Positions 342-22,106 are shown, counted from the stretch's first letter. The stretch is 64,000 nt of DNA from Patescibacteria group bacterium (GCA_019745315.1 JAIETH010000002.1:32654-96653), one strand, 5' to 3'. Notes: generated by a model from the letters alone, not told the origin. Numbers and translations: made by a program.

Positions 342-517
342 ATCATTACATGATCAGTACAGGTTTCTGATATTTTGATTCGCATAGCTCTCAAAATATC
401 TAGTAACCTTCTCTAACAGTTCACAGAACTATTAGAGCCTTTCGAGTGAGAAAGTGCGGGGCACTTTTGCAAGACTTTCTATGGCAAATTATTCTTTTTA
501 TTTTGTTGTGTACTTTG

Positions 518-590
518 TGCGCGCACTAGGGGTCGAACCTAGGACCTTTCGAGTATCAGTCGAATGCTCTACCAACTGAGCTATGCGCGC
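518..590 (-). tRNA. tRNA-Ile, anticodon GAU.
   Basis: The reverse complement folds as a canonical 73-nt cloverleaf: GCGCGCA acceptor, GCUC/GAGC D-arm, UUCGA/UCGAA anticodon stem with loop CUGAUAC giving anticodon GAU, and T-arm CUAGG-UUCGACC-CCUAG. CCA is not encoded. Confidence 0.85.
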
Positions 591-925
591 ACAAAACCTA
601 CAACTTTAAAATAAAAGGACAATTTGCCTAGAAAGTATACAGCTTCCGTAGGAAGTCAGTCGAATATTCCCCCAACCCTATTGCCGGCCCCCTAGGGCAT
701 CGGCAATTTCCTCCTATGGTCGGAACCGGATTCAAAGCAAAACTGTTTACTTTGAATAGCCAGCGCGCATTTTCGAAATACAATCCTTGAATAAATGGAT
801 GAGTATTGCTTCGAGATAGTATCAAAAATAGTACTTTATCGCAATGAAATTGTGATTTTGTATAGAAATCATAAAGGGCCGAAACGAATGTTCCGGCCCC
901 CTTCCATCTGCTCGCTTGCTGGCCA

Positions 926-1165
926 TCACTTCCTGATCGTATTCCTGAAGCCGATCAGAGCAAGGCCTGCCAGCATCATTCCCCCGATCGTCATGAAGGC
1001 CTGAAGCCCCATATGATCGACATCTCGAAACGCGATCCACATCGCGCCGAAGACCGAGACGAGAAGTCCCACTGCCTTCAGCTTCTGCAGACTCGACAGC
1101 GATCGAGATCTGCGATTGGTGGTACGTATTGCGCCACCAACGAACAACCTATCGGAGTGAATCAT
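926..1165 (-). CDS. Hypothetical small membrane protein of 79 aa. Its GC content is higher than that of its neighbours.
   Basis: ORF with two hydrophobic segments. The upstream sequence reads GAAGGGGG-N11-ATG. Downstream on the minus strand there is a GGCCG...CGGCC hairpin followed by T-rich sequence at about 878-905. The local GC is elevated. Confidence 0.3.
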   Translation of the reverse strand: MIHSDRLFVGGAIRTTNRRSRSLSSLQKLKAVGLLVSVFGAMWIAFRDVDHMGLQAFMTIGGMMLAGLALIGFRNTIRK

Positions 1166-1281
1166 AGTTTTTATGTCCCCCTTCTCTGTTTGAACCTGAA
1201 TATATTATATCACGCACATATATATTGTCAAATACCCCACTGTGTATATCGTTTGCACCTTTGGCTGCGGTATACTGTTTA

Positions 1282-1666
1282 CATGAAAAAATCACACATT
1301 CTTACAACATTCCTAGCCCTCGGACTCCTCTCCGTGCCAGCTCTAAGCCATGCTCAAACAGTGACATTGGCAACATATATTGGTGTAGCAATCAGCTTCA
1401 TCAATGACTATCTCATCCCTCTTATTGCTGCTATTGCATTTCTCTTTTTTATCTGGGGAATGGTCAAGTATTTTATTATCGGGGCAACCAATGAATCGAG
1501 TCGCGAAAGCGGGAGTCGTCTTGCGATATGGGGCATAGCCACTTTTGTCGTTATCGTGAGTGCGTGGGGACTTGTGAATATGCTCATTACAGGATTTGGT
1601 GTAGAAAATCCATCAACTCTTCCCTGTCCTGATTACGGACGCGACCGCAACCCTAATTGTATATAG
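1282..1666 (+). CDS. Small secreted or membrane protein with a signal peptide and two transmembrane helices. It is pilin-like, possibly of the TrbC/VirB2 family that is common in CPR genomes.
   Basis: Translation from the internal ATG at 1282 gives MKKSHILTTFLALGLLSVPALSHAQ, a signal peptide, followed by two hydrophobic helices. The listed ORF from 1013 has an implausible N-terminus. The ORF is followed by an intrinsic terminator. Confidence 0.45.
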
Positions 1667-1683
1667 AGAGACCGTGAGGAAAA

Positions 1684-1717
1684 CAAAAAAACGCGACGTA
1701 TATGTCGCGCTTTTTTG
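1684..1717. terminator. Intrinsic terminator (cgcgac-gtatat-gtcgcg followed by a T-run, with an A-run upstream). It is bidirectional and sits between the plus-strand ORF and the 16S 3' end.
   Basis: Read directly from the sequence. Confidence 0.6.
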
Positions 1718-1926
1718 TTTGTGTAATATAGAAAGAAATTTCATCTGTACACACGTCACTTTTATAGAGAAATACGTATCTTCTTTTGCCTTACCCTTGA
1801 ACCTAGTCTTTCCCAGTGTCGCATAGATTTTGAGACCATACCATGATAAGTCTATTTCGGTGCTCAATTGAGGCACCGAATATCGACCGGTAAGGTAAAG
1901 AGCATGAAAGCTCAGTACCATTTCCG

Positions 1927-3385
1927 ATTGGAATTAATCCACGACCAGCTTCCGCTAGCCGTGCCTTGTTACGACTTAGTCCCTGTCATCGAGTTTACCG
2001 TAAGCCTACACGAGGTAGGATTTCGGGCACTCCCGACTCCCTTGACTTGACGGGCGGTGAGTACAAGGCTCGGGAACGTATTCACCCCGGCGTTGCTGAT
2101 CCGGGATTACTAGCGATTCCGACTTCATGAGGGCGAGTTGCAGCCCTCAATCCGAACTGGGGGTACTTTTATAAGGATTTGCTCCACCTTACGGTATTGC
2201 GTCCTGTTGTGGTACCCATTGTATCACGAGTGCAGCCCAAGGCATCAAGGGACATGCGGACCTGGCGTCATCCTCACCTTCCTCCCCCGTGAGGGGGCAG
2301 TCTCGCCTGACAAATATAACAGGCAACGAGGGTTGCGTTCGTTTCCCCACTTAAGGGAACAACTCAAGCCACGAACTGACGACGGCCATGCATCACCTGC
2401 CATACACCCTCGAAGGCTTCCCCGGTTTCTCGGGGCGTGCAGTATGGTTTCTAGCCTTGGTAAGGTTCCTCGCTTAGCGACGAATTAAGCCTCATGATCC
2501 ACCGCTTGTGCGAGCCCCCGTCTATTCCTTTGAGTTTTAATCTTGCGATCGTACTTCCCAGGCGGCCCGCTTAACGCGTTAGCTTCGCCTCAGAGAGGGT
2601 CGATACTCCCTAAAGCTAGCGGGCAACGTTTAGGGCGTGGACTACCGGGGTATCTAATCCCGTTCGCTACCCACGCTTTCGTGTTTCAGTGTCAGGAATA
2701 CGCCAGTAAAGTGCCTTCGCATTTGGTGTTCCCCATGATATCAACGGATTTCACCCCTACACCATGAGTTCCCTTTACCTCTCGTATCCTCGAGCGTAGC
2801 CGTTTCCTCCGCGATTACCGGGTTAAGCCCGGTGATTTAACGGAAGACTAACTACGCCACCTACACACCCTTTACGCCCAGTAAATCCGGATAATGCTCG
2901 GGGCCTCTGTATTACCGCTCCTGCTGGCACAGAGTTAGGAGCCCCTTATTCATGAGGTAACGTCAAAATTTCCTCCCTCATAAAAGATGTTTACGTCCCT
3001 AAGGACTTCATCCATCACGCGGCGTCGCTCCGTCAGGCTTGCGCCCATTGCGGAAGATTCTCGACTGCAGCCTCCCGTAGGAGTATGGCCCGTGTCGCAG
3101 TGCCATCGGTGGGGGTCAGCCTCTCAGCTCCCCTACGCGTCGTAGCCTTGGTGAGCCATTACCTCACCAACTAGCTGATACGTCGCAGGCTGTTCCCAGA
3201 GCGATAAATCTTTACTCTCTCGAGACCATCACGTATTATCTCGCCTTTCGACGAGTTATTCGTGACTCTGGGGTACATACCTACGTGTTACTACCTCGTC
3301 TGCCATGGGTCTAAACCCATTCGACTTGCATGCCTCATCCACGCCGCCAGCATTCATCCTGAGCTAGGATCAAACTCTAATTTAA
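1927..3385 (-). rRNA. rrs: 16S ribosomal RNA, about 1.46 kb, with no large insertion.
   Basis: On the reverse complement there are universal landmarks: a 5' end ...AGAGTTTGATCCTAGCTCAG at about 3359-3378; a 515F-region variant TTACCGCTCCTGCTGGCAC; a 1492R-region GCCTTGTTACGACTT; and helix 45 with a GGAA tetraloop. The 3' tail reads GGAUUAAUUCCAAU rather than GGAUCACCUCCUUA. Confidence 0.9.
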
Positions 3386-6734: not shown

Positions 6735-7424
6735 ATGCATTCTGAAACAGTCATAATCTCAGTCGGCGGTTCTCTTATCGTCCCAGATCAGATCGACACA
6801 GACTTTCTCTCCTCTTTGAAGACTCTTGTTGCCACAGAAATTGCTGCAGGCAAGCATTTTATAATCATCACCGGTGGCGGAAAAACAGCACGGAGATATC
6901 AAGACGCAGCGAGTGGTGTAACGAATCTCTCTTCTGAGGACGTTGACTGGATTGGCATCCACGCAACGCGCCTAAATGGACACCTCCTTCGCACTATTTT
7001 TCGAGACATTGCTCACCCTGTCATGATCACAAATCCTGATGATGTACTTGATATCCCGAAAGATGTTCCTCTGATCATCGCATCAGGATATCGCCCTGGA
7101 TCTTCTACCGACCTACGTGCCATTCAGATAGCCGAGCGACGTGGCGCTACAAAAGTAGTTAATCTTTCAAATATTGACTACGTCTATACTGCAGACCCGC
7201 GCACCAATCCTGATGCACAGAAAATAGAATCTATTTCATGGGCAGATTTTAGAAAACTCATACCGTCGGAATGGGATCCCGGACTCTCTTCCCCATTTGA
7301 TCCTGTTGCCGCCCGCGAAGCTGAGCGACTCGGACTTGAGGTAGCGGTTATAAATGGAGGAAATCTTCAAGAACTCCAGAAATATCTTGAAGGAAATCCT
7401 TTTGTAGGGACAGTTATAAAATAA
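6735..7424 (+). CDS. pyrH: UMP kinase of the archaeal type (amino-acid kinase family).
   Basis: Motifs IISVGGSL, GGGKTARRY and YVYTADPRTNP align with archaeal-type uridylate kinases. The start was chosen at MHSETV, an internal Met of the listed ORF. Confidence 0.7.
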   Translation: MHSETVIISVGGSLIVPDQIDTDFLSSLKTLVATEIAAGKHFIIITGGGKTARRYQDAASGVTNLSSEDVDWIGIHATRLNGHLLRTIFRDIAHPVMITNPDDVLDIPKDVPLIIASGYRPGSSTDLRAIQIAERRGATKVVNLSNIDYVYTADPRTNPDAQKIESISWADFRKLIPSEWDPGLSSPFDPVAAREAERLGLEVAVINGGNLQELQKYLEGNPFVGTVIK

Positions 7425-12323: not shown

Positions 12324-13703
12324 TTATCGTAATCGAATAGTAACACCGAAGCGACCAAGAAGCGTCTTGAATGTGCGGAGTGCGATATTTATATCCAGCA
12401 AGAGTGATCGATGCTTGATATAAAATAAATCGTATGCCAAGCGCATATGCGTCTCCTCAACAGACTGCGGACTAATATGCCCCGGAGTGTATTGTTGATG
12501 GGTTTGAGCCCATCCTGTAATACCTGGCTTAATAATAGTGCGTATTGCGTAAAATGGTATCTCCTCTCCGAGACGGAGGGCAAGACCTTCAATATCATTG
12601 CGCGGACCAATGAGCGACATCTCGCCTTTTAAAATAGTAAGCACCTGAGGCAGCTCATCAATACTTGTCTTGCGAAGAAGTGCTCCTACTTTCGTCACTC
12701 TATTTTTTGACTCACCGAGCCATACACCGTTTTCATTTGAGCTCATTGTGCGAAACTTGTATACGGTGATAACAGTTCCTGCAATCCCCATCCTTCGTTG
12801 CGCAATAAAGAGCGGACCTTTATCTTCAATACGAATCGCACACCACACTAATGGAATAATACACAGAAGAACAATGCCCAAAAGCGATGCGCCAACAATA
12901 TCAATAATTCGTTTCAAGAAACTATATACCGGCTGAGCTGACCGAGTTACGTGTGCCAAAAACCACTCGTAATGCAGCATCGAAACAGGTACTCGATCGA
13001 ATATTTCTTCGTACATCGCATGAAAGTCAATAAACCGCATACTTTTGTCTGAAAACGTAAGTGTGAACAAGAGAGGTACAAGCTTTGTAATTTCAGGATT
13101 CCGCGTATCACCGACAATGATAGAAATGTTTTCTTTTTCTACCAGGAGCCGGACTTTGTTTTCAAGATCGCGCGTCTCAGAAAGCATCTCGGCGTTGAGG
13201 ATACGCACAAATGTTATGCCGTATCGTGAATTTGAATTAACCTCTCTCACCAAATCTTCAATCTCTTCTCCTTCCCCCACCAACAATGCTTTACGGCGTG
13301 TTTTTGGCATCAAATATTCAACCAATAGCAATCGCCACACGAGAAGTGCGGCTGACGAAATAACAAAATAGATGAGCAGATTTGTTTTAGGCGTAATGCC
13401 GAAGTACGGTATAAAAAAGAAAAATAACGCAGCGAGAGCTGCATTTACCATTTGTGCATTAGTGATGGTGCTCAGCATTCCTCGCTTCACAAACTCTGTA
13501 TGCTTGTCATAGAGACCAGCTATAAAAAACACCACAACCCACGCAATTGAGAGAATAAGAAACGGTGCAAAGTGAGCGCCAAAAAGCTCTGAGTCTGGAA
13601 AACCCCAATAGCGCACACAAAGGGTGACCCACAGGGCTAGAAAAAAGATACCAATATCTCCCAAGAGAAGGAGTAGTGACTCTCTTTTATTGTGATAACT
13701 CAT
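12324..13703 (-). CDS. Polyprenyl glycosylphosphotransferase (bacterial sugar transferase, WbaP/CpsE-like).
   Basis: N-terminal TM helices and a C-terminal YKFRTM...LIGPR sugar-transferase signature. The start was chosen at MSYHNK. Confidence 0.7.
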   Translation of the reverse strand: MSYHNKRESLLLLLGDIGIFFLALWVTLCVRYWGFPDSELFGAHFAPFLILSIAWVVVFFIAGLYDKHTEFVKRGMLSTITNAQMVNAALAALFFFFIPYFGITPKTNLLIYFVISSAALLVWRLLLVEYLMPKTRRKALLVGEGEEIEDLVREVNSNSRYGITFVRILNAEMLSETRDLENKVRLLVEKENISIIVGDTRNPEITKLVPLLFTLTFSDKSMRFIDFHAMYEEIFDRVPVSMLHYEWFLAHVTRSAQPVYSFLKRIIDIVGASLLGIVLLCIIPLVWCAIRIEDKGPLFIAQRRMGIAGTVITVYKFRTMSSNENGVWLGESKNRVTKVGALLRKTSIDELPQVLTILKGEMSLIGPRNDIEGLALRLGEEIPFYAIRTIIKPGITGWAQTHQQYTPGHISPQSVEETHMRLAYDLFYIKHRSLLLDINIALRTFKTLLGRFGVTIRLR

Positions 13704-13808
13704 AGAGGGTAAAACCAAGAATATGCTTATATTACAACAAAAAAACAAGGAAACAAGTTACTTTAAGCCGACTTTTAAAGTGATATACTTAGGAAAATAG
13801 CCTCCAAT

Positions 13809-13866
13809 ATGAGCAATAAAACCAAAAAGAAAATACTATTCCTGATTACCAAGAGCAACTGCGGGC
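13809..13866 (+). pseudogene. Remnant duplicate of the N-terminus of the downstream GT4 glycosyltransferase.
   Basis: The stretch ATGAGCAATAAAACCAAAAAGAAAATACTATTCCTGATTACCAAGAGCAACTG parallels the real gene start (MNNPPNRKKILFLITKSNWGG versus MSNKTKKKILFLITKSNCG), then truncates. Confidence 0.45.
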
Positions 13867-13895
13867 TTTCAAAGCAACGGGGTTGCTTTGAAAGA
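13867..13895. other. Perfect 13-bp stem hairpin (ctttcaaagcaac-ggg-gttgctttgaaag) directly after the gene fragment.
   Basis: Read directly from the sequence. Confidence 0.5.
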
Positions 13896-13933
13896 AAAAC
13901 AACCGCCCCAATTCACCAGCTACAAACCAAAGC

Positions 13934-15094
13934 ATGAACAACCCTCCCAATCGAAAAAAAATATTGTTCCTGATTACAAAGTCTAACTGGGGCGGCGCCC
14001 AACGCTACGTCTTTGACCTTGCAACATCTCTTCAAAACTCTTTTGATGTTGCGGTAGCCCTTGGAGGCAACGGCAAGCTTGCTGAAGTGCTTCAGACACG
14101 GAACATCAAAACACTCCCCATAGCCGACCTTAAGCGAGACGTATCTCTCACGCATGAATGGAAAGCGTTTTTAAATCTCTATCGACTACTGCGTACAGAG
14201 CGGCCAGACATCCTTCACCTCAATAGCTCTAAGGCGGGCGTACTTGGCGCACTTGCAGGACGTCTCGCACGCGTACCACACATTATATTTACCGCTCACG
14301 GCTGGGCATGGAATGAAAATCGTTCTCTTGTTTCAAAAATATGTATTGCCGCTCTTCACTGGATAACAGTGATACTTTCAGATCGCACCATAGCGGTGTC
14401 TCATAACATATATGACCAAATGGCACGTTTCCCTTTTACCCGAAGACGTATGCGGGTAATTCATCTCGGAATTACACCTCTTCCCAATCTCTCGCGTGAG
14501 CAAGCGCGCCAAAACATACTGGAAATAATTCCAGGATTAAAAGAAGATAGAGACGGGCTATGGGTAAGCACTATCGCAGAACTTCATCCCATCAAAGGTT
14601 TTTTTCATGCGCTTCCCGCGATACAAGAAGCTCAAAAAAAGTATCCTGGTTTACGCTATATCATATTCGGCGAAGGAGAAGAACGGCTCAAAATTGAAGA
14701 CTACATACAGAAGAATGATCTTACGGAAACAGTATGTCTGGCTGGATATGTACATGATGCCTCAGCGCTCCTTCCTGCTTTTGACCTTTTTATACTCCCC
14801 TCATTCTCTGAATCATTTGGATACGTACTCGTAGAAGCTGGAGCAGTAGAAGTACCCATCATAGCAACCAATGTCGGAGGTATCCCCGAAATAGTTGAGG
14901 AAAATGCCGGTGTATTAGTGGAGCCTGGCAATACAGAAGCACTTGCTCATGCCATCGTAGACGCCTTAGGAAATACAAAAAAGATGCGCGCCTCAGCTCG
15001 CACCTTGAAGCAGCGCGTACTCACCCACTTTACAAAAGAACGTATGTCTGAAGAAACAGCAGATATCTATACCGATCTCCTTACTAAAAGATAA
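13934..15094 (+). CDS. Glycosyltransferase family 4 (GT1-fold).
   Basis: Contains the SESFGYVLVEAGA...PIIATNVGGIPE signature of GT4 enzymes. Confidence 0.75.
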   Translation: MNNPPNRKKILFLITKSNWGGAQRYVFDLATSLQNSFDVAVALGGNGKLAEVLQTRNIKTLPIADLKRDVSLTHEWKAFLNLYRLLRTERPDILHLNSSKAGVLGALAGRLARVPHIIFTAHGWAWNENRSLVSKICIAALHWITVILSDRTIAVSHNIYDQMARFPFTRRRMRVIHLGITPLPNLSREQARQNILEIIPGLKEDRDGLWVSTIAELHPIKGFFHALPAIQEAQKKYPGLRYIIFGEGEERLKIEDYIQKNDLTETVCLAGYVHDASALLPAFDLFILPSFSESFGYVLVEAGAVEVPIIATNVGGIPEIVEENAGVLVEPGNTEALAHAIVDALGNTKKMRASARTLKQRVLTHFTKERMSEETADIYTDLLTKR

Positions 15095-16204
15095 CTATTG
15101 ATCGTGCTCAATAATGACTCGCTTTTTGCGCTTTGTCATACCAATAAGCATTCCAATACCGATACACTCCGTAATGAGGTGAGACCCCCCATAACTTAAA
15201 AATGGCACCGTTGTCCCCGTTACTGGCAAGAGTCCTATGTTCATACCTATATGCACAAAGAAGTGCGTGGTGATGAGTATGGCGAGCCCAGTGCCAAATA
15301 ATCGCTCAAAGTTTGTTTCTCCATCAAGTGCACGAAATAGTATCTTCCACACCAAGAGCGCAAAAAGGAGAAAAACGAGCAGCGCTCCTATAAACCCCCA
15401 CTCCTCAGCAAAGGCAGCAAAAATAAAGTCTGTTTCATATTCTGGCAAAAACTCGAGCTTCGATTGTGTACCATATCCAATACCCTTACCCAACAACTCT
15501 CCCGAGCCGACGGCGATCGTCGATTGGTATGCATTGTATCCAGTACCCTGAATATCAGCGAGCGGATGAAGAAATGTTCTAATGCGATCTTTTTGGTATT
15601 CCTGGAAACCAAAAAACCACAATCCACTAAATGAAAGGACACCGAGGAGAAAAACAGCGCCTACGTGTCGCCACGAAATTCCTGCAACCAATACGAGGCC
15701 AAACCATACAGAAAAAAGAATTATGGCGCTCCCGAAGTCAGGCTGAATGAATACAAGCGCGAAGATAAAAAATGCATAGAGACCCGAAATAATAATATGT
15801 CGAATATCTGCAATTTCTACATGTCGCTTTGAAAAGTATTTCGCCAATACCATAATCAAAACGAGCTTTGCGGGGTCTGACGGCTGAAGTGCAAAGAAAC
15901 CGAAATCAAACCGACTCTGAGCACCCTTTACCACTGTTCCAAATACCAACACTGCAGCAAGCACTGCAATTGTTGCCATGTATATATAAAAGACTGCATT
16001 TCCCGTTCTTAAAAAACGGTAATCGGGAATAGCTGCTATAACAAGAAAGAAAAAAGAAACACCAATCCATATAACCTGTCGCTCAAAATAGAGATTGTCT
16101 CCCAGGTACGAATACATCGTCATAAGGCCGAGCAGACTCAAGACGAGCGCAGTGCCAAAAAGCCACATATCAAAGCCTGCAAATAGCGCTTTTAGTGCTC
16201 GCAT
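15095..16204 (-). CDS. SEDS family peptidoglycan polymerase (FtsW/RodA).
   Basis: A 10-TM protein with the conserved FAAFAEEWGFIG and PFLSYGGS regions. Confidence 0.75.
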   Translation of the reverse strand: MRALKALFAGFDMWLFGTALVLSLLGLMTMYSYLGDNLYFERQVIWIGVSFFFLVIAAIPDYRFLRTGNAVFYIYMATIAVLAAVLVFGTVVKGAQSRFDFGFFALQPSDPAKLVLIMVLAKYFSKRHVEIADIRHIIISGLYAFFIFALVFIQPDFGSAIILFSVWFGLVLVAGISWRHVGAVFLLGVLSFSGLWFFGFQEYQKDRIRTFLHPLADIQGTGYNAYQSTIAVGSGELLGKGIGYGTQSKLEFLPEYETDFIFAAFAEEWGFIGALLVFLLFALLVWKILFRALDGETNFERLFGTGLAILITTHFFVHIGMNIGLLPVTGTTVPFLSYGGSHLITECIGIGMLIGMTKRKKRVIIEHDQ

Positions 16205-16215
16205 GGAAATACTAC

Positions 16216-17598
16216 TTACGGACGCTCTTGGTTGTCATTGAGCTCCCCGATCACCTTTGGCACGATATCAATCACCGCAGCCCCATCCTCGCAGAGTGAA
16301 GTAGTTATTGAGCGATAGATACCGTCGAGAGAGGCTTTATCTAAAGCGCGATATTTTTGCGCGGGGTCAGACGCTATCGAGGTTAAGAAACTGTCTTCAA
16401 CACCTTCGCCAAGTCCAATAGTGATAATAGTGATTCCTTGGTCTTTTGCTCGTTGCGCTGCCGCAATTGCATATGCTTCAGGGTCAGGATCAGGTTCGTT
16501 TGTTTTTCCATCAGTAAATACAATCAATACTTTGCGTGCATCAGGATTATGTCGAGACGACTCAAATTCTTCCGTGGCAACAAGAATTGCATCTCCCACA
16601 TTGGTTCCTCCTGACTGCTCTTTAGGATCAATAGTGAGTCCTTGTACCAACGTACCTACTCCCATCGTATCGCCGGTCAGCGATCGAGAAAGAGTTCCCC
16701 CAGTTGCAAAGGTTGCTATTCCTATTTGATCTTTGCTCCGTAGTCGTTCTACGAACCCAGATGCCGATCGGAGTACAGAGGTAATCGGCTCAGGCGGTGT
16801 ACCACCCTCAGAGTCCATACTTCCAGAAAGGTCAATTGCCATAATTACATCAGTAGGAATCTCACAACTCGTGATAGTTTTTGCTATCGGTTCAGGCCAG
16901 GTAAATGTGACCACTTTCTCAGTTCGTCCTTCAAAGAGAGGGACCACGGTGCGTGAAGCAGTGAGGGCATTTCCTTTTGCATTAAAAATAGTCGCGATAA
17001 TCTCTACGCTTCGAGCATCGTTAAGGGACGTGTTTGTGAGAGATGCTTCAAGTCGTGGCTTCGTGTCCGCATCAACAAGTGCTCGCGAATTAACCGTGAA
17101 CTGGGCGCGATTATCTGTAAAGACCTCCCACCGTGTTACAGGTGCAAGCGTAATGGTGGTTTGAGCAGGAACTTTATTTCCTGTACTGATGCGTCCTTCA
17201 AAAATAGGATACTCACTATCTGGTGGCAAAAATGTTGTCCCTGTTTTTTCAGCTATTTTGGAACCATCAGCCGCAAAGAGTGTAAACGTGTATGAGAGCT
17301 CTCGCGTACCAACATCAAGATTTTTATTTTCTACATACGCCACCGCATTGTAAACGCCATCTGAAACCTTAAGCGCACGACTCCACGCGACTGTCGGCTC
17401 GAGCACATCAAATGGGCATACGAGCACGCACGAACCACCGCAATCAATACCACGCTCATCACCATTTTGGCGATCATCAAAACATGTTGGCTCATTTCGT
17501 ATGAAAAAGAAATAAATTAGCGTGAAAACCACTGCAAAAAAAAGCACTATGCCAATGACATATTGCACCCTTCTCCAAAAAGCCCACGGTCTATACAT
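16216..17598 (-). CDS. Membrane-anchored von Willebrand factor type A domain protein.
   Basis: N-terminal TM, an AIDLSGSMDSEGG MIDAS-like motif and downstream VWA features. Confidence 0.6.
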   Translation of the reverse strand: MYRPWAFWRRVQYVIGIVLFFAVVFTLIYFFFIRNEPTCFDDRQNGDERGIDCGGSCVLVCPFDVLEPTVAWSRALKVSDGVYNAVAYVENKNLDVGTRELSYTFTLFAADGSKIAEKTGTTFLPPDSEYPIFEGRISTGNKVPAQTTITLAPVTRWEVFTDNRAQFTVNSRALVDADTKPRLEASLTNTSLNDARSVEIIATIFNAKGNALTASRTVVPLFEGRTEKVVTFTWPEPIAKTITSCEIPTDVIMAIDLSGSMDSEGGTPPEPITSVLRSASGFVERLRSKDQIGIATFATGGTLSRSLTGDTMGVGTLVQGLTIDPKEQSGGTNVGDAILVATEEFESSRHNPDARKVLIVFTDGKTNEPDPDPEAYAIAAAQRAKDQGITIITIGLGEGVEDSFLTSIASDPAQKYRALDKASLDGIYRSITTSLCEDGAAVIDIVPKVIGELNDNQERP

Positions 17599-17651
17599 AC
17601 ATGTATTGTAACAGAGAGCTGAGCATAAGAAAAAAGTATCTACTAGAAAAC

Positions 17652-17679
17652 AAAAAAACGACCAGTGGTCGTTTTTTTG
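17652..17679. terminator. Intrinsic terminator (acgacca-gt-ggtcgt followed by T7) immediately downstream of the 5S region on the minus strand.
   Basis: Read directly from the sequence. Confidence 0.65.
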
Positions 17680-17694
17680 TAATTAAATATTTAA

Positions 17695-17768
17695 ATCTGG
17701 CGGCTACCTACTCTCCCTCTTGCGAAGTACCATCGGCGCTAGAAGGCTTAACTTCCGTGTTCGGAATG
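17695..17768 (-). repeat. Partial 5S rRNA copy, identical to the 3' 74 nt of the intact 5S gene.
   Basis: A 74/74 nt direct repeat of 17840-17913. It is followed by non-5S sequence. Confidence 0.7.
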
Positions 17769-17839
17769 TTACCGTCTTGCCCAAGAGCAAAGCGATTGGA
17801 TGCAAGACGCAATCCCATACTTTTGAATCAAAAACTATA

Positions 17840-17948
17840 ATCTGGCGGCTACCTACTCTCCCTCTTGCGAAGTACCATCGGCGCTAGAAGGCTTAACTTC
17901 CGTGTTCGGAATGAGAACGGGTGTGACCCTTCCGCCAAACCACCAGAT
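17840..17948 (-). rRNA. rrf: 5S ribosomal RNA, 109 nt.
   Basis: The reverse complement AUCUGGUGGUUUGGCGGAAGGGUCACACCCGUUCUCAUUCCGAACACGGAAGUUAAGCCUUCUAGCGCCGAUGGUACUUCGCAAGAGGGAGAGUAGGUAGCCGCCAGAU aligns to the 5S consensus, including the CCGAAC and GUAC loop E regions and helix I. Confidence 0.85.
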
Positions 17949-18012
17949 TATAATGTTCGATTGTCAAAAGTATGGGGCGAACGGCGTAAAATAGTGCCCC
18001 ACACTATTTTAC

Positions 18013-18034
18013 CCCTTCCGCCAAACCACCAGAT
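18013..18034 (-). repeat. Partial 5S rRNA copy covering the first 22 nt of the 5S gene.
   Basis: A direct repeat of the 5S 5' end at 17927-17948. It is preceded by an 11-bp hairpin at about 17985-18010. Confidence 0.6.
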
Positions 18035-18293
18035 TTAAATATTTAATCTGTTGGAATTTAATATCAAGTGTAGTATTTTTGCAACTCAAAATCAAAACCT
18101 AAGCAACTCTATGAATGCATAGTATTCCTTGTCTTGAATCCTGAAATCGAAATTTGCATGACGATGTTCAGCATTCCTTACAGGAAATACATTCTATTAG
18201 TACACCTCGGCTCCGCATATTTCTATGCTTCCACCTGGTGCCTATCAACCTGATAATCTCTCAGGGAATTTAATGATTCCTCATCTTAGAACT

Positions 18294-18326
<33 letters not shown>

Positions 18327-18452
18327 ATTCCGAACGTAGCTACAGGGCAATGCCGCTGGCGCGACAGCCCTCAGACCAGAGGTTCGTTCATCCCGGTCCT
18401 CTCGTACTAGGGACAAATTTCCTCAAGAATCGACGCCTGCAGTAGATAGGAG

Positions 18453-18486
<34 letters not shown>

Positions 18487-18561
18487 GCGTAACTTTTTAA
18501 TTGGCGAACAGCCAAACCCTTGGGACCTGCTCCAGCCCCAGGATAAGTTGAGCCGACATCG

Positions 18562-18927
18562 CTGTCATTTTTCCCACATTACTGTGAGGATCGGACTATA
18601 TCTTCATCCATACGTAATTTCGCATGGAGATCGGCGTGTAGTCTCTACGGGATCATGTACCAATATGCTTTCGGAATGAAATTAATCTGAAATTGATACT
18701 GACTTCCCACGGTATTGTCCACCTTCTCATTCTCTCTTACGAGAGCGGCTGATGTGGAGTTCACCGTTATAGCCAATTTGTTTTTGTACGGCATTACTGC
18801 CATAGGCACCCCGATGTATTTCGTTTGTTCTATATGGACTTTCGTCCATACAATCTTCGCTCACTCGGTCATGCAAAAGTAAACTTTTGCGCGACGCTCA
18901 TTCGCTTGATTGTAACTACATAAGTTA
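18562..18927 (-). ncRNA. Group I intron of 366 nt in 23S domain V, inserted after the U equivalent to E. coli U2500. It carries no ORF.
   Basis: Exon continuity GGCACCU|...|CGAUGUCGG. The 5' exon ends in U and the intron ends in G. The core sequences GUAGAGACUACACGCC and AAGAUAUAGUCCGAUCC resemble group I P7/J8-7. Confidence 0.65.
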
Positions 18928-19495
18928 AGGTGCCGAACCGTGCCGTCGCTATGGACGCTTGGGCACGACTAGCCTGTTATCCCCAGGGTAACTTTTATCG
19001 GGTAATCTCCGGCCGCATCTAACGCGTACCATCGGTTCACTATGCTCCGCTTTCGCGTCTGCTTGGCATCTACGCCTTACAGTCAAGCTGGCTTATGCCA
19101 TTACACTATCGGCACGGTTTCCATTCGCGCCTAGCCAACCTTGAGACCCCTCCGTTACTTTTTAGGAGGGTAGCGCCCCACTAAAACTGCCTACCACGCA
19201 CTGTCTCAGCATGATTTTTTCATGCTGGTTAGAAACTGCCCGAGTAAAGAATGGTATTTCACTGACGAGTCCACACTTCCCAAAAGAAATGCTTCAACCT
19301 CTCCCATCTATTCTACGCATCACAAGAACAGCCTCAATACGAAGCTACAGTAAAGCTCCTGGGGTCTTTTCGTCTAACTGCAGGTACCCGGCATCTTCAC
19401 CGGGATTGTATTTTCACCGAGCAAGTCCTTGAGACAGTTCCCCAGTCATTACGCCATTCGTGCACGTCGGAACTTACCCGACAAGGAATTGCGCT

Positions 19496-19722
19496 CTTCT
19501 ATTCCTCAAAGAAGGACTCTGTCTTCGTCCGTCCGCATAGGCGACTAAGGACGCGTGACATCTGGTCTCTTTGTGGTCACGTTTTGACTAAGCGTACATC
19601 TCTGTACGCAAGGTAGCTTTTTGAATGATCATCTACGTATCTCTCATAGATGAATTTGCGTCCATTTACCAATCCATAATCGTTCCAGTCATTCGGTTCA
19701 CTTCATTACTGAAATGAACCGA
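19496..19722 (-). ncRNA. Insertion of 227 nt in 23S domain IV at the L1931-equivalent site. It is a candidate small group I intron or intervening sequence.
   Basis: Helix 69 is intact (AGCGAUAACUAUAAUCGUU). The exon reads CUAAGGU|...|AGCGCAAUUCC. The insert begins with U-exon, ends with G, and contains CCUUAG, which is complementary to the 5' exon. Confidence 0.5.
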
Positions 19723-22106
19723 ACCTTAGAACGATTATAGTTATCGCTGACATTGACCGGGGCTTACATAGCCCAGCAGTACAGATTGCTCCATACCACC
19801 TTCCATGTTTAACCTTCCGGCATTGGTCAGGCGTCACCCCCTATACATCCACTTACGTGTTCGCAGGGAGCTGTGTTTTTGGTAAACAGTTGCCAGGGAA
19901 TCTTTCGCTGCGGCCTCTCACCTTGCGGCGAGGAGGCAGGCCTTATCCCGAAGTTACGGCCGCTTTTTTGCCGAGTTCCTTAAGGACCTCTCACTCGTTC
20001 GCCTTGGTCTACTCGACCTGATCACCTGTGTCGGTTTGCGGTACGGAACCGTTTTGTGTAACGTAGAAGTTTTTCTTGGAAGCGTGCTCCCACAATTGAC
20101 GTGTCCGAAGACACATCTTCAGGTTCAACTCGGATGTGCATTAAAGCAGAAGTGCGGATTTACCTACACCTCACCCTCGAAGCACCAACGAAAATCCAGT
20201 AATTCGTTTGAAGTACAACCCTCCGTCCCTCCATAGAAACAAAACGGTGTTATGGAATATTAACCATATGTCCATCGCCTCCCCCGTTCGGGATCGGCTT
20301 AGGCCCGACTAACCCTTGGCTGATCACCATCGCCAAGGAAACCTTGATCTTTCGGCGGGAGGGGCTCTCACCCTCCTTGCGGTTACTTGTGCCGGCATTC
20401 TCACTTCCATACGCTCCAAGTCGGGTCTCCCCTCCTCTTCATCGCAGAATGGAACGCTCTCCTACCACTTACTCTGTACGAATACAGAGCAAATCCGCAG
20501 TTTCGGTACTATGCTTGAGCCCCGATCATCTTCGGCGCAGAAACTCTCGACGAGTGAGCTGTTACGCTATCTTTAAAGGATGGCTGCTTCTAAGCCAACC
20601 TCCTCGCTGTCAATGAATTTCCACCTCCTCAAGTTGCACTGAGCATAGATTTAGGGACCTTAACTGGCGATCTGGGCTGTTTCCCTTTTGACCAATGGAG
20701 CTTATCCCCCATAGTCTAACTGCCGTGTTTTTAATCCTTGGTATTCGGAGTTTGATAGGTCCCACGAGATTTCTCCCTGTTGGGACCTTCCAGTGCTCTA
20801 CCCCCAAGGGGAACACACGACGCCAACCCAAAAGCTGTTTCGGAGAGAACCAGCTATTACGGAATTCGATTAGCTTTTCACTCCTTACCACAAGTCATCC
20901 GATGGTTTTGTACGGCCAACCGGTTCGGGCCTCCCCTTATCTTTCGATAAGGTTCACCCTGCTCATGGCAAGCTCATCCCGCTTCGGGTCGCATTCTATC
21001 CCTTATAATTTCGCGCTATTAACACTCGCTTTCGCTCTGCCTCCGGGGGTCGTCCCCTTAGACGAAGGAATACAATGCACTCGCCGGCTCATTCTTCAAT
21101 AGGCACGCGGTCACCAGACTTACGTCCAGCTCCCACTCTTTGTAGGCATACGGTTTCAGATCTATTTCACTGTCCTCACCGGACTGTTTTTCACCTTTCC
21201 CTCACGGTACTCGTTCACTATCGGTCTCTTAAAATATTTAGCCTTAGGAGTTAGTGCTCCCAGATTCATTCGAGCTATTCATGTCTCGAACTACTCAGGA
21301 ACGACAACAAGAAAGTAGTATTGATTTCGTATACGGGACTATTACCCACTGGGGTCACGCTTTCCAGCGTGTTCTACTACCAATACTTTTTGTAACTTTC
21401 CTCAACTAAATGAAGTTGCCGCCCTACAACCCCGACTATGTAAACACAATCGGTTTGGGCTGATCCCGTTTCGCTCGCCGCTACTAAGGGAATCGCAAGT
21501 GTCTTCTTCCTGACTATAATGGCTCCGCCAGTTGGCAGAATTTAGCCAGAAAGAAAACACCTTGTATTGCTTTCTTTTCCTCCAGGTACTGAGATGTTTC
21601 ACTTCCCTGGGTATGCAAATGTCTTACGACAAATCTCTATCGTAGATAGAGGGGTTTCCCCATTCGGAGATCCTCGGTTATAACGATTGCTTGGCATCTT
21701 ACCGAGGCTTATCGCAGCCATGCCACGTCCTTCTTCGCTTTTAAGAGCCTAGGCATCCACCGTACGCCCTTCATTCCTGTAAGGAATGCTAGACACCGTT
21801 TAAGGCACTTTCCATTCCATTACATGAATACTAAACACCGCTGTTTAGATTTTGATTTTTGTTGTTGTTCGCATGACACACACTCTGACGAAAAGACCCT
21901 CTTTAAAGACATGTGTGCACCATGCGTCACGTGTATGCAACAAAACATACACGATTGCTCGATACTTCCTACATGATATTAAATTTTCAACGAGCGAGTG
22001 TCCCGTATAAGGACTAAAAAAACCGCTTTGAGCGGAGAGAGAAACCCACAGAGAGTCCAACTTCCGCTTACAGGTTTTTATAGTTACTCATAGACACGTA
22101 GCCGCC

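Follow-up and report, generated by a model that had tools for sequence, protein, structure and literature searches.

Introduction

Intervening sequences in bacterial 23S and 16S ribosomal RNA (rRNA), such as those of the Salmonella 23S rRNA, are excised by RNase III at a long stem without re-ligation. For 5S rRNA, expanded forms have been described, in which inserts of 13-109 nt at 17 sites form self-contained helices that can leave the core undisturbed; expanded and normal copies can coexist, and a spread by homologous recombination has been proposed (Stepanov & Fox 2021, RNA 27:133; PMC7812874). The same survey reported 5S remnants with insertions, i.e., partial cores that sometimes occur in several copies, downstream of normal 5S genes at the ends of operons in Peptococcaceae and Pseudoalteromonas, suggested homologous recombination between remnants and live 5S genes, and discarded sequences with internal duplication. 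In the candidate phyla radiation (CPR, Patescibacteria), insertions were found in 48% of 16S and 82% of 23S rRNA genes, but none of ≥100 bp in 645 5S rRNA genes (Tsurumaki et al. 2024, PMC11270868). Here, we describe a 5S rRNA locus in a 64,000-nt stretch of DNA from a Patescibacteria group bacterium (GCA_019745315.1, JAIETH010000002.1:32654-96653; this full stretch is referred to as the window), where a complete 5S rRNA gene is nested within a second copy of the same gene that is split between nt 22 and nt 36. We lean towards the interpretation that a single functional inner 5S rRNA with its own long stem resides inside an older copy, which was split in loop B and loop C, and that this allele has been gained and lost by homologous recombination.

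As in the expanded 5S rRNAs, the inserts of the outer copy are located after nt 22 (loop B) and at nt 35/36 (loop C, about positions 37/38 in Escherichia coli). In contrast to these, the insert comprises 244 nt, which is larger than any reported, and contains a complete 5S gene; the host belongs to the CPR rather than to Clostridia, Halanaerobiales, Alteromonadales, or Halobacteria; and it is probably not the interrupted copy that functions. Since sequences with internal duplication were discarded in that survey, a nested case would have been filtered out. The locus likewise resembles the operon-end remnants, in that a partial 5S core (the outer 3' fragment) accompanies a normal 5S where the rRNA operon ends, as is also the case for the related loci L016, L012, L026, L008, and L094 (loci of relatives are designated by L numbers throughout). 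It differs from the remnants by an additional 5' piece upstream of the normal gene, which renders the arrangement nested and not tandem, by fragments that are 100% identical to the live gene, and by the lack of a terminator between normal gene and remnant, so that the latter should be co-transcribed. The tandem remnants of L016, L012, and other relatives extend the remnant phenomenon to the CPR, and the window together with a more distant relative, L005, adds a nested form with the live gene inside the insert.

With the insertions known from CPR 16S and 23S rRNA genes, the locus shares the group of organisms and a large non-rRNA insertion in an rRNA gene, and the adjoining 23S rRNA gene contains a group I intron. 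With 244 nt separating nt 22 from nt 36 in the outer 5S, as determined against the uninterrupted locus L097, it contains an insertion as defined in that study (≥100 bp within an rRNA gene). However, this insert has neither an intron signature nor an open reading frame (ORF) for a homing endonuclease, and it carries a copy of the gene that it interrupts. That no 5S insertion was found previously (PMC11270868) can be attributed to covariance-model searches, which report only the intact inner copy. Like the intervening sequences processed by RNase III, the insert is predicted to be bounded by a long stem (~27 bp in addition to helix I), with the difference that excision would release the functional product and leave the host RNA as waste. 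Apart from these systems, nothing on nested or duplicated 5S genes in Patescibacteria was found in the searched literature.

Results and discussion

Anatomy of the nested 5S rRNA locus

The complete 109-nt 5S rRNA gene proposed by a first-pass annotation of the DNA was recovered at the same coordinates with the Rfam model (Table 1). It combines a score over the full model with a location 3' of the 23S rRNA gene, in the same transcription unit and with an extended helix I stem. Its sequence is identical to that of the single 5S rRNA in two close relatives (L001 and L097), and it is presumed to be the functional copy. The copies of its 5' end and 3' part that had been noted on either side proved exact when compared by script, with the upstream copy being followed by a 27-nt hairpin at the beginning of a 64-nt stretch (X). 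The 3' copy spans the 3' part of loop C, the 3' strands of helices III and II, helices IV-V, and the 3' strand of helix I, which leaves TCACACCCGTTCT (nt 23-35) as the sole part of the 5S without a repeat. Chance cannot account for two exact repeats of such length (22 and 74 nt) in a region of 340 nt. The stretch that separates the complete 5S from the 3' copy (Y), given as 76 nt in the first-pass annotation, measures 71 nt, and the operon terminator begins 14 nt after the 3' copy, in agreement with the proximity suggested before.

Table 1. Features of the nested 5S rRNA locus in the window and in the distant relative L005. Window features are ordered 5' to 3' along the RNA; 5S numbering refers to nt 1-109 of the complete gene. 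MFE, minimum free energy.
Feature	Position	Strand	Remarks
Window: 23S rRNA gene	18175..21783	minus	3609 nt; Rfam LSU_rRNA_bacteria 2278 bits; same transcription unit, 5S region at its end
Window: group I intron inside 23S gene	18572-18823	minus	Rfam Intron_gpI 63.1 bits
Window: 23S-5S spacer	between 23S gene and outer 5' flank	minus	127 nt
Window: 5' flank of outer 5S, GATTAAATATTTAA	18035..18048	minus	inverted repeat I1; 5' strand of outer extended helix I; paired in MFE fold; same flank in L097
Window: outer 5S 5' fragment	18013..18034	minus	22 nt; exact 5S nt 1-22 (repeat D2); 5' strands of helix I and helix II
Window: stretch X	18012->17949	minus	64 nt; between outer 5' fragment and complete 5S
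Window: X hairpin, GTAAAATAGTG-TGGGG-CACTATTTTAC	17986..18012	minus	27 nt; start of X; at loop B position of outer 5S; predicted fold
Window: GCCGTTCGC segment	17977..17985	minus	9 nt; inverted repeat I4; pairs with helix II strand of 5' fragment in MFE fold
Window: inner stem 5' strand, CCCATACTTTTGACAATCGAACATTATA	17949..17976	minus	private 5' flank of inner 5S; inverted repeats I7 and I3; MFE fold
Window: inner complete 5S rRNA gene	17840..17948	minus	109 nt; RF00001 match 17840-17947, 85.6 bits (gathering score 38), model positions 1-120
Window: stretch Y	17839->17769	minus	71 nt; between complete 5S and outer 3' fragment
Window: inner stem 3' strand, TATAGTTTTTGATTCAAAAGTATGGG	17814..17839	minus	inverted repeats I7 and I3; MFE fold
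Window: rest of Y	17769..17813	minus	hairpin CGTCTTGC...GCAAGACG without T-run (predicted fold)
Window: outer 5S 3' fragment	17695..17768	minus	74 nt; exact 5S nt 36-109 (repeat D1)
Window: 3' flank of outer 5S, TTAAATATTTAATT	17681..17694	minus	inverted repeat I1; 3' strand of outer extended helix I; same flank in L097
Window: intrinsic terminator of 23S-5S unit	17650..17680	minus	14-bp stem with 5 G-C pairs, then T-run
L005: flank GAATGTTCTC			first part of nested locus
L005: 5' fragment			23-nt copy of own 5S 5' end, 1 mismatch
L005: hairpin	7202-7228		27 nt; same 5S position as window X hairpin
L005: CCACGTTCTCAGCCGATC	after hairpin		resembles 5S helix III and loop C
L005: complete 5S			82.2 bits; on long A/T-rich stem
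L005: outer 3' pieces			5S nt 52-90 and 88-109, with ~90-nt insert between
L005: flank TAGAGCATTC			complementary to GAATGTTCTC; followed by terminator

The outermost flanks had been described as inverted repeats that extend helix I, and they indeed form a 22-nt inverted repeat (I1) with 95% complementarity, by which helix I reaches ~25 bp in the predicted fold. Beyond this, we found the 3' end of X to be complementary to the 5' end of Y (I7 and I3), a feature that the first-pass annotation did not include and that provides the inner 5S with its own long stem of ~27 bp beyond helix I. The MFE structure is correspondingly nested, with the outer stem enclosing the X hairpin and the long inner stem that carries the complete 5S, and its energy (-163.9 kcal/mol) is well below that of shuffled sequences (-103 +/- 5; z = -12). 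A terminator scan revealed the terminator listed in Table 1 as the only site, with none between the inner 5S and the outer 3' fragment; the whole nested unit should therefore be co-transcribed. There is no evidence for a separate promoter of the inner 5S, as the promoter scan returned 1 site compared to 1.8 expected by chance. The outer 3' fragment together with adjacent Y sequence reached 24.7 bits (E = 0.011), which is below the RF00001 gathering score of 38, and the outer 5' fragment had no match to this model.

The 13 nt that seem to be missing from the outer copy may in part be preserved within X. The motif CCGTTC within the GCCGTTCGC segment is identical to a strand of 5S helix III, and the equivalent place in L005 reads CGTTCTCA..CCGA.C. 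Judged from this resemblance, the segment may derive from the outer copy's helix III 5' strand (5S nt about 28-35) and have diverged since. A second, weak similarity to the same 5S positions is located at the end of Y (GACGGTAA) in the cmscan alignment. Neither X nor Y has a further copy in the window. A permissive Rfam scan of positions 17500-18200 (E <= 10) yielded no family other than 5S above noise, including no intron signature in the insert, and no ORF of at least 90 amino acids is listed inside 17600-18175.

An uninterrupted allele in a close relative

The source organism is a Kaiserbacteria-like member of the Patescibacteria, i.e., an ultra-small CPR bacterium: the gene adjoining the terminator encodes a VWA-domain protein (MBX9906659.1), homologues of which are named Kaiserbacteria. 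The gene order 23S (with group I intron)-5S-VWA-RodA-glycosyltransferase is kept in relatives. One of these, L097, is a 2551-bp metagenome contig from ENA whose VWA protein belongs to the same 90% cluster as that of the window. According to BLAST, L097 aligns to window positions 18450-18013 with 98.6% identity (6 mismatches in 438 nt) and then continues straight on to positions 17768-15670 with 91% identity. Only the 13 nt TCACACCCGTTCT lie between both blocks, resulting in one uninterrupted 5S with the outer flanks and the terminator of the window. The window thus corresponds to the L097 allele with 244 nt (X-5S-Y) replacing 13 nt. Junctions are given as BLAST coordinates, since the repeats caused the MAFFT global alignment to misplace the gap. 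With 22 nt, the 5' repeat is shorter than normal assembly k-mers, so that neither allele should be derivable from the other by graph collapse.

Two origins had been put forward in the first-pass annotation, together with the advice to compare related genomes. This comparison, which yielded the uninterrupted allele of L097 and the nested allele of L005 (see below), bears out the 5S gene that received an insertion carrying a second 5S, while the other proposal, a tandem duplication with internal deletion, did not hold. It is true that tandem arrays do occur in relatives (L016, L012, L094, and L011) and that the similarity of GACGGTAA to 5S nt about 28-35 would give overlapping fragments, as might be left by duplication or triplication of a 5S unit followed by internal deletions. 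However, inner and outer 5S share identical bodies but have unrelated flanks, and the two inner flanks are complementary to each other; the sequence 5' of the upstream fragment pairs with that 3' of the downstream fragment, which is what a single gene cut in two would show; in the empty-site allele, precisely these two fragments are joined; and at least 3 copies and 2 deletions would be required. We therefore regard such a history as highly improbable.

A third allele is represented by L001, which is 98.2% identical to the window over the downstream genes and harbors a single 5S with different flanks as well as an additional ORF. Across window positions 13296-18450, the closest relatives thus form a mosaic, with L097 being nearly identical upstream of the 5S and more divergent downstream, where L001 is the closer sequence; in the 5S flanks and the VWA promoter region, L001 is unrelated to the window. 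The abrupt shift of identity on both sides of the 5S indicates that the locus has been shuffled by recombination between strains, and suggests that co-existing strains have recombined with breakpoints at the 5S. An extended helix I is also found in the relatives with a single 5S, and every 5S of the clade, nested or not, has an extension of 11-17 bp.

The additional ORF of L001 (positions 206-793, 195 amino acids) lies between 5S and VWA, is not present in the window or L097, and exhibits weak helix-turn-helix similarity to sigma-70 region 4 (E = 0.007).

The nested layout in distant relatives

The nested arrangement was identified a second time in L005, a 461.7-kb contig from another sample with the same 23S-5S-VWA-RodA order and a VWA protein that is 63% identical to that of the window (Table 1). 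Its predicted fold is nested alike (-219 kcal/mol, z = -11), with an outer stem of ~26 bp. The hairpins of window and L005 agree in length and position, and 4 of 10 shared pairs are doubly compensated, while none is broken. The alignment of both X stretches scored 27, compared to 14.9 +/- 3.0 for shuffled sequences (reached by 4 of 1000 shuffles), whereas the Y stretches of the two loci show no significant similarity. A search with the hairpin pattern GGGTANNNTAGNNNGGGGNNCTANNNTAC had L005 as the sole match among the fetched loci and returned 0 matches in viral contigs. The outer copy of L005 is broken in the conserved loop E strand (between GAGAG and AGTAGG), and its helix III 3' strand has decayed. 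The outer 3' part of L005 is repeated in L006, a Logan contig.

In a further relative, L092 (GCA_039740975.1; VWA 62% identical), a 20-nt 5' fragment is located 20 nt upstream of the 5S, and the 5' flank of this 5S is homologous to the inner flank of the window (z = 7.2). Window, L005, and L092 hence all have their 5' junction at nt 20-23, and these three lineages are placed in one clade of the VWA tree, whose members show all states (nested, remnants, and simple). Since the fragment-to-hairpin junction is common to lineages that diverged long ago, as judged by VWA proteins of only 62-63% identity, the nested layout is old and most likely represents neither an assembly accident nor a fresh mutation.

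An assembly artefact, i.e., a chimeric or collapsed path through 5S repeats of mixed strains at a locus that in truth contains a single 5S, was nevertheless considered, because related metagenome contigs often break at this place (L001, L004, L006, L032, L093, and L095), the simple allele exists in related strains, and the window's own nested allele was encountered in a single assembly only. However, X and Y are unique sequences that must stem from real DNA, and a 22-nt repeat is below the usual final k-mers, so that the path from flank through fragment to X should have needed real reads. Furthermore, the same fragment-to-hairpin junction was assembled from another sample in L005, whose outer 3' part recurs in L006, and L092 has a 5' fragment as well. 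An artefact is thus very hard to reconcile with the data.

The data are also compatible with a recent insertion of a site-specific mobile cassette (X-5S-Y), which would target 5S nt 20-23 and 35-36 and be tolerated by bringing a replacement gene. Sharp repeat boundaries, repeats of 100% identity, the empty-site allele in a close relative, the recurrence of the 5' junction in the three lineages, and the homology of the cassette 5' end (the hairpin) between window and L005 and of the inner flank between window and L092 would all be expected. Against this, the cassette has no ORF, no intron signature, and no target-site duplication, and 13 nt were replaced. When the 244-nt cassette was compared by BLAST with plasmids and phages, only the 5S body was matched and never X or Y, which likewise lack matches in viral contigs and elsewhere in the window. 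No mobility genes are present among the neighbouring genes, and the genes between 5S and VWA in relatives (the 195-amino acid ORF of L001, one of 225 amino acids in L011, and a methyltransferase-like one of 295 amino acids in L007) showed no mobility function. Moreover, the cassette 5S is identical to the 5S of the host species at 109 of 109 positions, so that any donor would be conspecific, and ordinary homologous recombination of nested and simple alleles gives the same pattern without a dedicated mechanism. We consider a mobile cassette unlikely.

The ~90-nt insert in the outer 3' fragment of L005 (7536-7652) is a structured module that was also detected in the outer 3' fragments of L095 (1-108) and L032 (262-372), in each case between GAGAG and AGTAGG. 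It comprises three hairpins, with compensatory changes in 12 of 29 predicted pairs among only 3 sequences, and its first hairpin has a G-rich loop like that of the X hairpin in the window. An apparent reverse complement of this module was found in L016 (479-570), L014 (about 2790-2880), and L028 (about 655-733).

5S remnants and concerted evolution across the clade

Approximately 12 of about 20 distinct related loci contain 5S fragments or duplicated 5S flanks beside their 5S. Downstream fragments of the own 5S, often broken by inserts, were identified in L016, L026/L033, L032, L012, L029, L008, L095, and L004, while L011, L094, L028, and L014 harbor duplicated 5S 3' flanks with a second terminator; L001, L097, L007, L013, L017, and L025 are simple loci. 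In L016, L026, L012, and L008, a terminator-like hairpin parts the real 5S from the fragments, and the loci L016, L012, L094, and L011 represent tandem arrays, in which a complete 5S is followed by degenerate copies, each with its own terminator. The arrangement that the first-pass annotation had recognized in the window is therefore not a one-off accident, but part of an old and lineage-wide phenomenon.

The outer fragments bear lineage-specific bases of their own inner 5S in L005, L092, L016, and L032. Examples are positions 9, 14, and 19, at which L005 and L092 differ from the window, and the 3' strand of helix II in L005 and L032. Such bases common to outer and inner copies imply that both evolve in concert. 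Within the window, 22 and 74 nt of the outer copy are identical to the inner 5S, yet the 9 nt between hairpin and inner stem have diverged (GCCGTTCGC compared to CCCGTTCTC).

Exact searches of larger collections retrieved little of this lineage. In the GTDB species genomes, a 37-nt 5S motif matched no more than two 5S genes, both unrelated (L002 and L003); the representatives of the lineage there evidently have either a different 5S sequence or no copy of the gene. A 33-nt 5S motif specific to the lineage gave 0 matches in JGI metagenomes.

Downstream of the 5S, many relatives contain arrays of small recurring units, each ending in a copy of the 5S 3' end or flank and often of the terminator (L012 780-1080; L028 470-830; L029 3060-3560; L016 240-1230; L008 1750-1890; L011 5110-5230; L094 1680-1760). 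A recurring motif of these arrays is AATAGTCGCTACGCTC, and another unit resembles a miniaturised 5S (TTGGCGCC...CCGTTCGACAGT-hairpin...ACAGTT). In L016, at least 3 successively more degenerate 5S copies are present.

Known types of elements were tried and rejected. An integrase/att model, prompted by the repeated 5S 3' end and flank in many relatives, lacks a recombinase, and the units comprise only 100-350 nt. In the window, an integrative element with its att site at the 3' end of an RNA gene likewise lacks a recombinase among the neighbouring genes, the repeats bracket only 64 and 71 nt, and X and Y pair with each other. A group I or group II intron or a homing-endonuclease element was dismissed because the insert has no intron RNA signature and no endonuclease ORF.

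Proposed processing of the inner 5S rRNA and possible role of the outer copy

How a functional 5S rRNA could be obtained from this locus can be outlined from its predicted structure. Transcription would proceed from the 23S promoter through the nested unit to the single terminator, and the transcript would be expected to fold in the manner of a Russian doll, with the outer stem enclosing the X hairpin and the inner stem that continues into helix I. An extended helix I is the kind of double-stranded stem that is cut by rRNA-processing nucleases such as RNase III. Cleavage specific to double strands within the inner stem would thus free a pre-5S, as it presumably does from the shorter extension of helix I in single-5S relatives, and the outer pieces would be discarded as by-products. 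With such a release, an essential gene present as a single copy could be interrupted without harm, which probably explains why insertions of this kind are the ones seen. The outer copy is then most likely a tolerated relic that is maintained and shuffled by recombination.

Among close relatives, the nested allele appears to be polymorphic and could move by homologous recombination, with the 5S or the neighbouring genes serving as arms. Recombination between direct repeats would collapse it to a single 5S: the conversion of the window allele into that of L097 would take two recombinations between direct repeats or one conversion from a sister copy, while in the opposite direction a simple allele of the L097 type may have recombined with a nested donor. 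The perfect identity over 22 and 74 nt could result from recombination or gene conversion, or from a recent transfer into a simple allele, and the 9-nt segment between the two insertions may have diverged because it is too short for conversion. The simplest account of these patterns is that sufficiently long homologous tracts undergo recombination or gene conversion, either from copy to copy or when a nested allele meets a simple one.

Several observations weigh against this account. Exact 74-nt repeats that are only 71 nt apart should vanish quickly, and their persistence in several lineages may point to selection. The X hairpin keeps all of its pairs through 4 double substitutions, which, together with the 12 covarying pairs of the module, suggests constraint on the outer elements. 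In addition, conversion over a tract of 22 nt is at the lower limit known for RecA-type recombination.

Alternatively, the outer copy itself could have a function. Together with the X hairpin, and with the module in relatives, it could form a conserved 5S-derived precursor scaffold for folding or processing of the inner 5S, or it could persist as a 5S-like RNA, either in two pieces or expanded, in which loop C accommodates the inner 5S. Both insertion points lie in the region of functional expanded-5S inserts, and loop C positions 34-37 are the least obstructed site for insertion (PMC7812874). When CCGTTC from X is used, all 22 canonical pairs of outer helices I-III can be formed in the model, and the outer stems are intact in window and L005 even though their flank sequences are wholly different. 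The 4 compensatory changes of the hairpin, the covariation within the module (3 sequences), and the persistence of outer-copy parts over deep divergence are in line with such a role. However, the predicted energy of the outer 5S-like fold is less favourable by ~14 kcal/mol than that of a competing structure, where the X hairpin is extended by the strand of helix II, and conservation of the outer copy does not include loop B or the 5' half of loop C. The broken loop E strand and decayed helix III strand of L005 imply that there is no working 5S there. Moreover, the outer copy is absent from the close relatives L097 and L001 and from several other lineages, and fragments in L016, L026, L012, and L008 are preceded by the terminator-like hairpin. 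A functional outer copy therefore seems doubtful, if less so than a mobile cassette.

In a broader version of this idea, to which we likewise attach only tentative weight, nesting would be a selected architecture of this Patescibacteria clade: the outer scaffold, consisting of the long stem, the conserved hairpin with its G-rich loop, and the covarying module in relatives, would aid maturation of the single-copy 5S after the loss of many ribosome-biogenesis factors, or a second split or expanded 5S-like RNA would be made. If the outer scaffold was indeed functional, this would bear on 5S rRNA maturation in genome-reduced bacteria.

With a live inner 5S within a tolerated outer relic as the favoured interpretation, the locus represents the first insertion in a CPR 5S rRNA gene known from the searched literature, which corrects a published negative, and the first case found of an rRNA gene nested in a copy of itself. 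It illustrates how an essential RNA gene present as a single copy can take up an interruption and still function, with alleles coming and going by recombination, and it marks loop B and loop C of 5S rRNA as sites that can take very large inserts. For annotators, it implies that partial 5S matches beside a CPR 5S are real features and not assembly errors. For rRNA specialists, to whom the arrangement should come as a surprise, it poses a question on the maturation of 5S rRNA in the CPR that can be tested.

Genomic context of the 5S locus

The rRNA genes of the window are unlinked and lie on one strand (positions 517-3385 and 17650-21783) in an unusual succession, with 23S-5S being followed by 14 kb of protein genes and then by the 16S rRNA gene (3385->1927); no 16S gene was found within the 42 kb upstream of the 23S gene that are covered by the window. 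A tRNA-Ile gene (590->517) is located 1.3 kb past the 16S, and an ORF similar to pilins of type IV secretion systems (1013-1666, plus strand) lies between the two.

With 3609 nt, the 23S rRNA gene is considerably longer than the 2925-position model, and roughly 400 nt of extra sequence besides the group I intron are unexplained. The 23S gene of L005 (3007-6909) has an intron match in the corresponding 3' region, and LAGLIDADG ORFs were identified inside the 23S genes of L007 and L092. A conserved stretch in the 3' region of 23S, CTATGTTCGGAATG, is complementary to loop C/helix III of 5S (CATTCCGAACA), and stretches of this type occur at window positions 18326-18335 as well as in L005 (6746-6759), L007 (4513-4530), L025 (3038-3051), and L026 (2602-2615), which may be due to chance or reflect a 23S motif already known to be conserved.

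Inserts enclosed by long perfect stems were furthermore observed in the 23S-5S spacers of L026 (2965-3110), L008 (1320-1545), L028 (190-285), and L014 (2385-2520), with that of L026 including a look-alike of the T-arm and acceptor end of a tRNA (GGTCCGAATCC...CACCGACCA).

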